Shown piece by piece: positions 9,492 through 10,691 of a DNA stretch of 15,275 nt. Each line of letters opens with the position of its first letter. Position 1 is the stretch's first letter. Source of the DNA: Promethearchaeota archaeon. Its GTDB lineage: Archaea; Asgardarchaeota; Thorarchaeia; Thorarchaeales; Thorarchaeaceae. The position numbers were made by a program, and so were the translations under genes. The notes under the pieces are model-generated. The model saw nothing but the letters and a program-made list of their open reading frames with translations, was not told where the DNA came from and searched no databases. Where the stretch lies: positions 1 to 15,275 of the forward strand of contig WJMJ01000041.1 in NCBI GenBank assembly GCA_014728035.1. Reading direction: 5' to 3'.

Positions 9492-9642
9492 TTGGACATG
9501 ATCTGATAGGAGCTATATGGACTGATACAGGATGAAGGCCTGGTCATCAGACATAGTCTGGCTGACCAAGAAGCCAACTACAGTGCAGCTCTTGGAGGGA
9601 CAACACTCAGTTGTCTAAGTTTGTCCAATAAGAATGAACGGT
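9492..9642. ncRNA. Copy 1 of a ~150-nt structured intergenic element (candidate ncRNA; strand unresolved)
   Basis: About 77% identical (120/156 columns, manual alignment) to the reverse complement of 10536-10691. Closing stem TTGGACA(9492-9498)/TGTCCAA(9622-9628); internal stem TGGTCA-TCAGAC/GTCTGG-c-TGACCA (9541-9568). The repeat is certain; RNA function is inferred. Confidence 0.55.
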
Positions 9643-9661
9643 GAGCTGAAAAACTCACCGT
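9638..9661. terminator. Hairpin between convergent transcription units (possible terminator)
   Basis: ACGGTGAG-ctgaaaaa-CTCACCGT, a perfect 8-bp stem followed by T-rich atttactatttttc on the + strand. Confidence 0.5.
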
Positions 9662-9792
9662 ATTTACTATTTTTCAGTGATTCTTATTGGTTTGATTTTA
9701 GAATTAAGTTGTAAACAGCTCGACAAAATCCAGAGGGCATTCAAACCTTTGATGATGCCATTTGAAATAAGAAACATGAATTTATTGTTGTA

Positions 9793-10416
9793 TTATTCAC
9801 CAAAATTAGAAACTGTTTCTCTCCTATACCTCTCTTCTGAATTGTCCTCTTTAGTCTTCCAGTTCTCTCTAATGATGATGTATATTGTAGGTATGACCGT
9901 GAATAAAGTTAGCAAAATCATACTATTTATTGTAAGTAATAGAATATTTTCTAGTTGAATTTCATCGTGGGTTTCACCTTCAGGTAGGTCTTGGTAAATT
10001 GTGATTGACCATGAATCACCTTGAATGAATTTTCCAGATACAGTCACATTTACTTCATACTGAGAATCGAACGAGTGTTCTAGCTTGGAATACGCATAAG
10101 AATCCGAGTCCTCATCTCCTGTATCTCTATCAAACATGTTCACTGTGGATATCTTGGTGTCATTCAGCAATAATGTTACATTCCCATCAACCTCTGCTAC
10201 AAATACTCCATGTTGCCGGAATTCAACAAGTATCTTGTAGGAATGATTACCAACCAAAATCAGAGAGCTGTTGACAACATATTCAGAAGATTGTTCCTGA
10301 TGAACAATATAATCATCTTGAATAGAATCCAATCTATTTAGGGTCATGAAGAATATACTAAGGAGAACCACAGTTCCGGTCAACATGATTATTGTAAGAT
10401 TCTTAATAGCACTCAT
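9793..10416 (-). CDS. Hypothetical membrane protein, two TM helices flanking a beta-rich extracytoplasmic domain
   Basis: 207 aa with hydrophobic N-terminal and C-terminal segments. The middle region has several N-x-S/T sequons (NSS, NHS, NVT, NDT). Confidence 0.75.
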   Translation of the reverse strand: MSAIKNLTIIMLTGTVVLLSIFFMTLNRLDSIQDDYIVHQEQSSEYVVNSSLILVGNHSYKILVEFRQHGVFVAEVDGNVTLLLNDTKISTVNMFDRDTGDEDSDSYAYSKLEHSFDSQYEVNVTVSGKFIQGDSWSITIYQDLPEGETHDEIQLENILLLTINSMILLTLFTVIPTIYIIIRENWKTKEDNSEERYRRETVSNFGE

Positions 10417-10535
10417 TCCAACACGCGATAATCTTGTAACGAAGTGATTTATCAGTTAGTATCGTTTTGTAGAAAATATACTCGAGTCTTTCCATAAGAT
10501 CTGAATTCATCCAGCATCCCAAGTGAACTCTCTTT

Positions 10536-10691
10536 ACCGTTCATTTTTAGTTGGACAAACTTTGACACCCGAGCTTTATCCGTCCAGAAACGGTACTGGA
10601 ACTGGCTCGGTCCTGGTCAGGGAATGTGTGTCTGGTGACCAGACCTTCATCCTGTATCATCCCATATAACCTCCTATCAGTTCCTGTCCTA
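10536..10691. ncRNA. Copy 2 (inverted relative to copy 1) of the ~150-nt structured element
   Basis: Shares exact blocks with copy 1 when read on the minus strand: CTGATAGGAG, TGATACAGGATGAAGG, CTGACCA, AAGTTTGTCCAA, AATGAACGGT. Stems: TTGGACA(10551)/TGTCC(10685 or 10695), GGTCcTGGTCA/TGACCAGACC (10609-10645), CCGAGC/GCTCGG and TCCAG/CTGGA. Confidence 0.55.

Follow-up and report, generated by a model that had tools for sequence, protein, structure and literature searches.

Copies of a 190-bp gene-less IS607-type mini-element in Thorarchaeota, a probable source of standalone TnpB omega RNAs

Among the closest described counterparts of the element reported here is the IS607-type transposon CboIStron. 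Integration by its TnpA takes place at TGGG and is strict for a GG core, its TnpB requires a TGGG target-adjacent motif (TAM), and its omega RNA forms a pseudoknot with the 3'-terminal scaffold bases; the scaffold ends in UCGG, so that the filled site escapes cutting at position -3, and TnpA supplied in trans excises a mini-insertion sequence (mini-IS) that lacks both genes (Zedaveinyte et al., bioRxiv 10.1101/2023.11.20.567912). In the IS200/IS605 lineage, gene-less elements of the palindrome-associated transposable element (PATE) type encode omega RNAs (Meers et al., bioRxiv 10.1101/2023.03.14.532601), and omega RNAs that stand alone function in trans with TnpB (PMC10691335; 10.1101/2023.03.14.532601). 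Here we analyse two inverted repeats in a 15,275-nt stretch of Thorarchaeota DNA (contig WJMJ01000041.1, whose full length is called the window), one on the plus strand at 9492-9642 (copy A) and one on the minus strand at 10536-10691 (copy B). Both are very probably copies of a 190-bp non-autonomous IS607 mini-transposon that encodes a standalone TnpB omega RNA in its Thorarchaeota (Asgard) host.

The repeat pair and the 190-nt unit

Global alignment of 9492-9642 (+) with the reverse complement of 10536-10691 gave 120 identical columns out of 156, with 31 mismatches and 5 gap positions, exactly the figures counted by hand in a first-pass annotation of the sequence. The pair had a local score of 129; 500 shuffles averaged 15.7 and did not exceed 28, and BLAST returned E=1.5e-25. 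The invariant tracts listed in that annotation were all recovered in both copies, as was its internal TGGTCA/TGACCA stem. Its GGACA/TGTCC closing stem does pair, but is mostly a repeated TTGGACA motif common to both transposon ends; covariation among GGACA-type pairings was found only in an internal GGACAAA/UUUGUCC. The annotation had proposed a new non-coding RNA (ncRNA) family and called for an Rfam scan and a homolog search. Rfam 15 yielded no match at gathering thresholds and none over either copy even at E<=10, an ARAGORN scan for tRNA and tmRNA found nothing relevant, and the homolog search uncovered a family of about 30 or more copies in the source genome, with more in its relatives.

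The assembly searched (G000) comprises 4.33 Mb in 173 contigs, of which the window is the entire contig C4. It contained 41 matches by DNA search, 47 by nhmmer and about 50 with a profile built from full-length copies. Copies in register define a 190-nt unit with sharp ends, starting with GGGT(A/T)GCA(A/G)TCAGCTAC and ending with AATGAACGGT; the termini are invariant (GGGT...AACGGT). The earlier outline of about 150 nt was thus too short, as both copies run further in the 5' direction and copy B measures 190 nt. Across the genome we distinguished 30 left and 30 right junctions, each with a unique flank, and at these junctions left and right flanks were unrelated to each other, the asymmetric element ends carried no terminal inverted repeats, and no target-site duplication was present beyond the GGT common to both junctions. 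Every canonical left junction reads GGG(T) and every right end CGG(T), with a conserved T after the GG at both. The left flank is biased, with A at -2 in 19/30 and T or A at -1 in 25/30, and the right flank is not. The only inverted motifs of the element are subterminal: two direct TTGGACA-like heptamers in the left end and two inverted ones (TGTCCAA) in the right end, which are probably TnpA binding sites. About fourteen contigs end with identical sequence within the 5' part of the element and about fifteen within its 3' part, and we therefore attribute these breaks to a young, near-identical subfamily that the assembler collapsed.

Two cases of nested or tandem insertion were observed among these copies. 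At C99:79970-79999, a canonical right end is directly followed by a second, degraded right-end remnant, and at C121:79240-79700 two copies lie in the same orientation about 110 nt apart.

Copy B is an intact gene-less IS607-type mini-element at 10536..10725 on the minus strand (profile match over positions 1-190, E=1.3e-65), element position 1 corresponding to window position 10725 and position 190 to 10536. Copies on C31, C121, C83, C126, C84 and C166 match it at 94-96% identity, and its termini are sharp (GGGTTGCAG...AATGAACGGT). Its left end (10684..10725, -) starts with GGGT, bears the two direct heptamers, aligns to the left end of an IS607 element on contig C25 and resembles the left end upstream of an intact tnpA on contig C16. 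The left junction lies inside a GC hairpin, AACCCCCGTAGGGGTT, where a GGG target is available in AT-rich DNA. Copy A, at about 9463..9642 (+), is an old, decayed copy that the profile matches only over positions 34-190; its first ~30 nt are degenerate, with GAAT in place of GGGT and the first heptamer lost.

IS607 parentage and distribution

The ends of the mini-element recur on a larger transposon in the same genome. Its first ~42 nt correspond to the left end of the C25 IS607 element, which aligns with element positions 1-42, and its last ~65 nt to the C25 right end, a profile match at 210043-210104 (-) covering element positions 126-190 (E=2.2e-9) directly after the frame of a 713-aa TnpB (C25:210077-212228, -; locus L062:276-2417, -). 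Upstream of this tnpB lies a 123-aa tnpA remnant with a MerR-type helix-turn-helix and the YARVSS start of a serine recombinase, which matches the NCBIfam model 'IS607 family transposase' over its first 81 positions. The C25 TnpB retains the RuvC motifs GADRG, FENL and HADVNAARNI and both CxxC pairs, and its zinc finger is intact; about 440 residues precede the part that aligns to TnpB models. Its relatives in Thorarchaeota, at 42-90% identity, have right ends that carry the same module and match the covariance model described below.

The only gene with a Resolvase domain in the genome encodes an intact 204-aa IS607 TnpA on C16, preceded by a similar left end and matching NF033518 at 167 bits (cutoff 110) as well as PF00239 and PF00376. 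At this locus (C16:29417-31714; L061) the intact tnpA is not followed by tnpB; the slot is occupied by a minus-strand frame of 539-562 aa, which had no family match and downstream of which no right-end module was found.

Omega RNAs are encoded at the 3' end of tnpB, at the right end of the transposon. The module, the last ~65 nt of the element, recurs many times in related genomes and occupies this place in several loci: it lies directly behind, or overlaps, frames ending in ...EYFYC.HC...HAD.NAARNI at L040, L047, L056, L058 and L046, and it likewise adjoins or overlaps TnpB C-termini at L062, L102 and L103. The gene-less copies end at the same boundary. Pfam scans of three of the relatives' frames (289-516 aa, two being 506-516 aa) gave matches to PF07282, the TnpB/Cas12f nuclease-bridge domain; one of the three, that of L040, also matched TnpB models in NCBIfam. 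From the C25 end matches and the tnpB-linked modules together, we infer that the mini-element is an internally deleted IS607-type element consisting of a left end, a short middle and a right end.

Other mobile-element assignments were considered. The asymmetric ends had first suggested a PATE of the IS200/IS605 type, which was rejected because the matching full element has a serine recombinase; the Y1 (HUH) TnpA partner expected of a PATE or other IS200/IS605 derivative was not found in the genome, where the sole trace of Y1_Tnp is a fragment of 36 residues at a contig end. A bridge RNA of the IS110 type was discarded because the flanks hold no long conserved target. The fallback named in the first-pass annotation, a decayed element resembling transposable elements of the miniature inverted-repeat type (MITEs), came closer: there are indeed many copies, but the terminal inverted repeats and target duplications of classical MITEs are missing, because a serine recombinase is used. 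In the profile search, the right-end module was not on the other TnpB genes of the genome (C128:776-2243, +; C123; C151:44787), which presumably use other omega RNAs. The TnpB-family protein on C128, a 2.2-kb contig, has 489 aa and ends in ...HSDDNAAVNIA.

With the covariance model, the module was detected in 42/61 genomes of the source family, with up to 54 matches per genome among the at most 57 candidates scored in each. In a phylum-wide sample it was present in 14/23 genomes of the source family and in 0/117 genomes from 26 other families of the phylum. Within the 61 family genomes, all 25/25 with a homologue of the C16 TnpA carry the module, and all 19/19 without the module also lack a TnpA homologue. 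We regard this co-occurrence as consistency rather than proof, the genomes being incomplete metagenome-assembled genomes (MAGs) of close kin. Many TnpA homologues in the related genomes are fragments or contain in-frame stop codons, which points to faster decay of autonomous copies than of the mini-elements that depend on them.

These observations bear directly on the proposal of the first-pass annotation that the repeats form a new cellular ncRNA family, that is, an independent host-encoded structured RNA that Rfam lacks and that has no relation to transposons. A conserved structure, intergenic location and the absence of an Rfam match would fit such a family. Against it stand at least 30 copies with sharp ends in unique contexts, contigs that break inside the repeat, ends homologous to an IS607 element, a module fused to tnpB 3' ends and a presence that tracks IS607 TnpA; nor are the copies syntenic single-copy orthologues across genomes. 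A host-encoded family is thus already contradicted and we consider it extremely improbable. What had been taken for one is instead a gene-less mobile mini-element bearing two parts of an IS607/TnpB transposon, its right end and its omega RNA scaffold.

RNA fold, predicted promoter and proposed mechanism

A covariance model with three nested stems (P1, P2 and P3) was built from ten copies and used to align 61 matches from many genera, 58 of them distinct. Of the pair cells in these 58 sequences, 92.7% hold Watson-Crick or GU pairs; shuffling lowers this to 82.9%, and sliding the partners by 1-3 columns to 28-49%. Changes on both sides occur in 17/30 pairs, and compensatory pairs number 6/7 in P1, 5/5 in P2, 2/5 in P3 and 4/7 in PKb, a long-range helix GGACAAA:UUUGUCC that lies outside the model. 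P2 and PKb cross, which makes a pseudoknot. RNAalifold, a program unable to represent pseudoknots, independently recovered P1, P3 and PKb; plain MAFFT followed by RNAalifold on unanchored sequences recovered only P2, so that Infernal had to be used for the alignment. In 94.8% of cells the P3 loop ACCGUU is complementary to AACGGU, the six nucleotides that close the scaffold, a pairing beyond covariation testing because both sides are nearly invariant. For GACAC:GUGUC, a contact between the P1 loop and the linker, compensation is seen at one position, where five sequences have exchanged C-G for U-A. A local hairpin of GGACA with a middle UGUCC was rejected, as it shows no compensation and is broken in 8 sequences in which the PKb partner compensates. 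The RNA fold is under selection: compensatory changes in P1, P2, P3 and the pseudoknot helix extend across genera, which bears out the first-pass annotation in that pairing is selected and a functional RNA is probably encoded, and the conserved, multi-stem, pseudoknotted architecture resembles that of a TnpB omega RNA.

In copy B the predicted scaffold spans 10536..10644 (-) and scores 141.5 bits with the covariance model. Its predicted elements on the minus strand are stem P1 at 10612-10642, stem P2 formed by 10605-10609 with 10570-10574, stem P3 formed by 10596-10600 with 10583-10587, and the pseudoknot helix PKb formed by 10575-10581 with 10553-10559; a further predicted contact joins the P3 loop (10589-10594) to the complementary 3' terminus (10536-10541). 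Copy A scores 90.3 bits, a 3-nt deletion having taken out the 5' half of its P2, and its P3 is disrupted. Copy B looks functional and copy A is a decayed relic.

The covariation also bears on whether the mini-element is a purely selfish DNA element without RNA function, its conservation due to recent descent and recombinase binding and its stems left over from the tnpB/omega RNA region. High copy number and near-identical young copies are in keeping with this, the TTGGACA/TGTCCAA repeats explain part of the complementarity, and single-sequence folds of the two window copies are unremarkable (z-scores -2.5 and -1.3). Such an account sits poorly, however, with P1, P2 and PKb, which are kept paired by compensatory changes across genera while the loops diverge. 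A recombinase needs only the termini (about 60 bp per end in the Cbo system; bioRxiv 10.1101/2023.11.20.567912), yet the middle of the mini-element has retained a stem that covaries and, at a constant distance, a promoter-like box. We consider a purely selfish origin of the conservation improbable, and favour the omega-RNA-encoding mini-transposon.

The promoter-like box is a YTTAWATA-type octamer, preceded by a purine-rich tract, that lies 28-31 nt upstream of the first P1 base in most gene-less copies from many genera. In TnpB-linked copies it is missing at that place, where coding sequence stands instead, and a TAGGAG..ATATATGG motif is also present upstream of the C25 tnpB. In copy B the TATA-like box is GTTATATG at 10663..10670 (-), with TAGGAGG ahead of it in a putative promoter role. 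In archaea, the centre of the TATA box lies about 26 nt upstream of the transcription start. The octamer is probably an internal archaeal promoter for the omega RNA, and this spacing would place the transcript start at the foot of P1, giving a ~105-nt scaffold that continues into the flank. The candidate guide segment of copy B, placed by analogy with TnpB/omega RNA systems in general, is its 3' flank at 10516..10535 (-), the sequence of which differs in every copy. The equivalent candidate position in copy A is 9643..9662 (+), where the flank and the last element bases form a hairpin followed by a T-run (ACGGTGAG...CTCACCGT TATTT).

On this observed anatomy, mobilisation, expression and re-cutting may be modelled as follows. 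The element retains four features: a left end with two TTGGACA repeats; a promoter resembling a B recognition element and TATA box (BRE/TATA), which in the full element is placed before tnpB; an omega-RNA-like scaffold of ~105 nt with three stems and pseudoknot contacts; and a right end with two inverted TGTCCAA repeats, ending in ...AACGG(T). Given the junctions observed, the C16 TnpA would excise and insert mini-elements in trans at (A)(T/A)GGG(T), with crossover at the common GG/GGT core. Such mobilisation, which would pass through a circular double-stranded intermediate, has indirect support from the young, near-identical subfamily and from the co-occurrence with TnpA homologues in 25/25 genomes. 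Each copy would be transcribed from its own promoter across its right end, yielding the scaffold with about 16-20 nt of unique flank as guide. By analogy with the IS607 element CboIStron, the C25 TnpB, as the single cognate nuclease, could load the RNAs of the mini-elements in trans and cut the emptied donor site (WGGG plus flank), after which recombination would restore the element, while the ACGG of the right end would spare the filled site. The left flanks point to a predicted TAM of (A)(T/A)GGG(T).

Several points weigh against this interpretation. The transcript is a prediction, as are its start and 3' end. Homology to TnpB-linked right ends is confined to the last ~65 nt, P1 and P2 aligning only weakly there, and the scaffold of the mini-element may not be fully equivalent to the TnpB-linked one. 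The alignment was fitted to P1-P3 and so leans toward these stems, and because related copies are non-independent the shuffle statistics overstate the support. TnpB proteins usually have ~400 aa; the C25 TnpB is atypically long and matches the NCBIfam TnpB models below their curated cutoffs. Seventeen family genomes carry the module with no detectable TnpA, in MAGs that are incomplete. Lastly, a search of G001, a genome of the same genus, at the window locus and for two other copies turned up no clean empty site that would confirm the insertion boundaries, because the flanks are not conserved at the DNA level.

A repertoire of about 30 or more guides per nuclease, each behind an internal promoter-like box, could also indicate domesticated guide RNAs that steer the large TnpB, or an inactivated relative, in regulation or defence in the manner of TldR, rather than in homing. 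TnpB-derived RNA-guided transcription factors offer a precedent (10.1101/2023.11.30.569447). Yet the guides are whatever flanks each insertion, and these flanks are unbiased; the elements, with their intact ends and a burst of young copies, give the appearance of continued mobility; and the C25 TnpB keeps its RuvC motifs and both CxxC pairs. Domestication is accordingly very improbable, and we retain the mobile, homing mini-element as the preferred explanation. That the promoter-bearing mini-elements constitute a dispersed, self-propagating guide repertoire for one 713-aa TnpB, with uses beyond homing, is a speculation that we hold to be unlikely. If true, it would imply, for example, that the guides serve to regulate neighbouring genes or to interfere with competing elements, and would offer a natural intermediate between OMEGA systems and array-based CRISPR.

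Genomic surroundings and comparison with known systems

Copy A begins about 24 nt past the stop codon of a gene for a single-stranded DNA-binding (SSB)-like OB-fold protein (8891-9439, +), and copy B lies 168 nt past a GNAT acetyltransferase gene (10893-11546, -). The SSB-like protein matches PF21473 and has a C-terminal tail of imperfect GGRGD/RGG repeats, the DNA of which also matches, inverted, 11780-11827 within an open reading frame (ORF) at 11629-12237 (-) that matches Nitro_FeMo-Co and DUF5320. The right ends of both copies face inward onto a 207-aa ORF at 9793-10416 (-), for which no Pfam or other family match was found. This ORF lies 120 nt downstream of the right end of copy B in the same orientation, and the predicted promoter of copy B reads toward it; copy B might thereby supply or alter its transcription. 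In G001, the ORF segment is missing from the orthologous locus and about 5.9 kb of other sequence lie between the orthologous SSB-like and GNAT genes, so the intergenic region between them is variable. A composite transposon mobilising the 207-aa ORF was rejected, as the copies are inverted with their right ends inward and homology to G001 resumes 186 nt beyond copy B.

For annotation, an apparent orphan ncRNA becomes a family-wide, high-copy IS607 mini-element of Thorarchaeota, one whose repeats fragment MAG assemblies and which annotation pipelines and Rfam currently miss. The analysis yields a covariance model and a pseudoknotted structure model for the omega RNA of an as yet uncharacterised archaeal clade of unusually large TnpB proteins, together with a TAM prediction open to testing and natural minimal scaffolds of ~105 nt with their own predicted promoter, which would be useful for testing Asgard TnpBs as genome editors.

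The element is not a new RNA class; it is an archaeal IS607-lineage case of the known gene-less omega-RNA elements, and nothing in the mechanism as such is new. The case widens the range of standalone omega RNAs from the bacterial IS200/IS605 PATEs to archaeal IS607 elements. Like classical MITEs, the mini-elements are short, non-coding, high-copy and intergenic and depend on a transposase from elsewhere; unlike them, they have asymmetric termini free of inverted repeats and target-site duplications, and a selected RNA fold. With PATEs they share a gene-less, multi-copy state in which transposon ends and omega RNA are kept and TnpA and TnpB are needed in trans, whereas PATEs belong to a Y1-transposase, single-strand, hairpin-end family and the Thorarchaeota elements have IS607 ends and a serine recombinase. 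The likeness to CboIStron extends to a serine-recombinase TnpA, to the absence of terminal inverted repeats and target-site duplications and to the GG core at both junctions with an xGGG target/TAM on the left, the TAM being predicted here. It includes a scaffold end of xCGG, by which filled and empty sites can be told apart at -3, a pseudoknot contact, here predicted, of the 3'-terminal scaffold nucleotides, and a form lacking both genes that can be mobilised in trans, here likewise a prediction. The differences are that the CboIStron mini-IS is a laboratory construct of about 800 bp with a group I intron, whereas the Thorarchaeota mini-elements are natural, 190 bp long and intron-less; and that the latter, unlike CboIStron, are archaeal, have an apparent TATA-type promoter of their own, conserve a T after the GG at both junctions and show no detectable similarity to any Rfam family.

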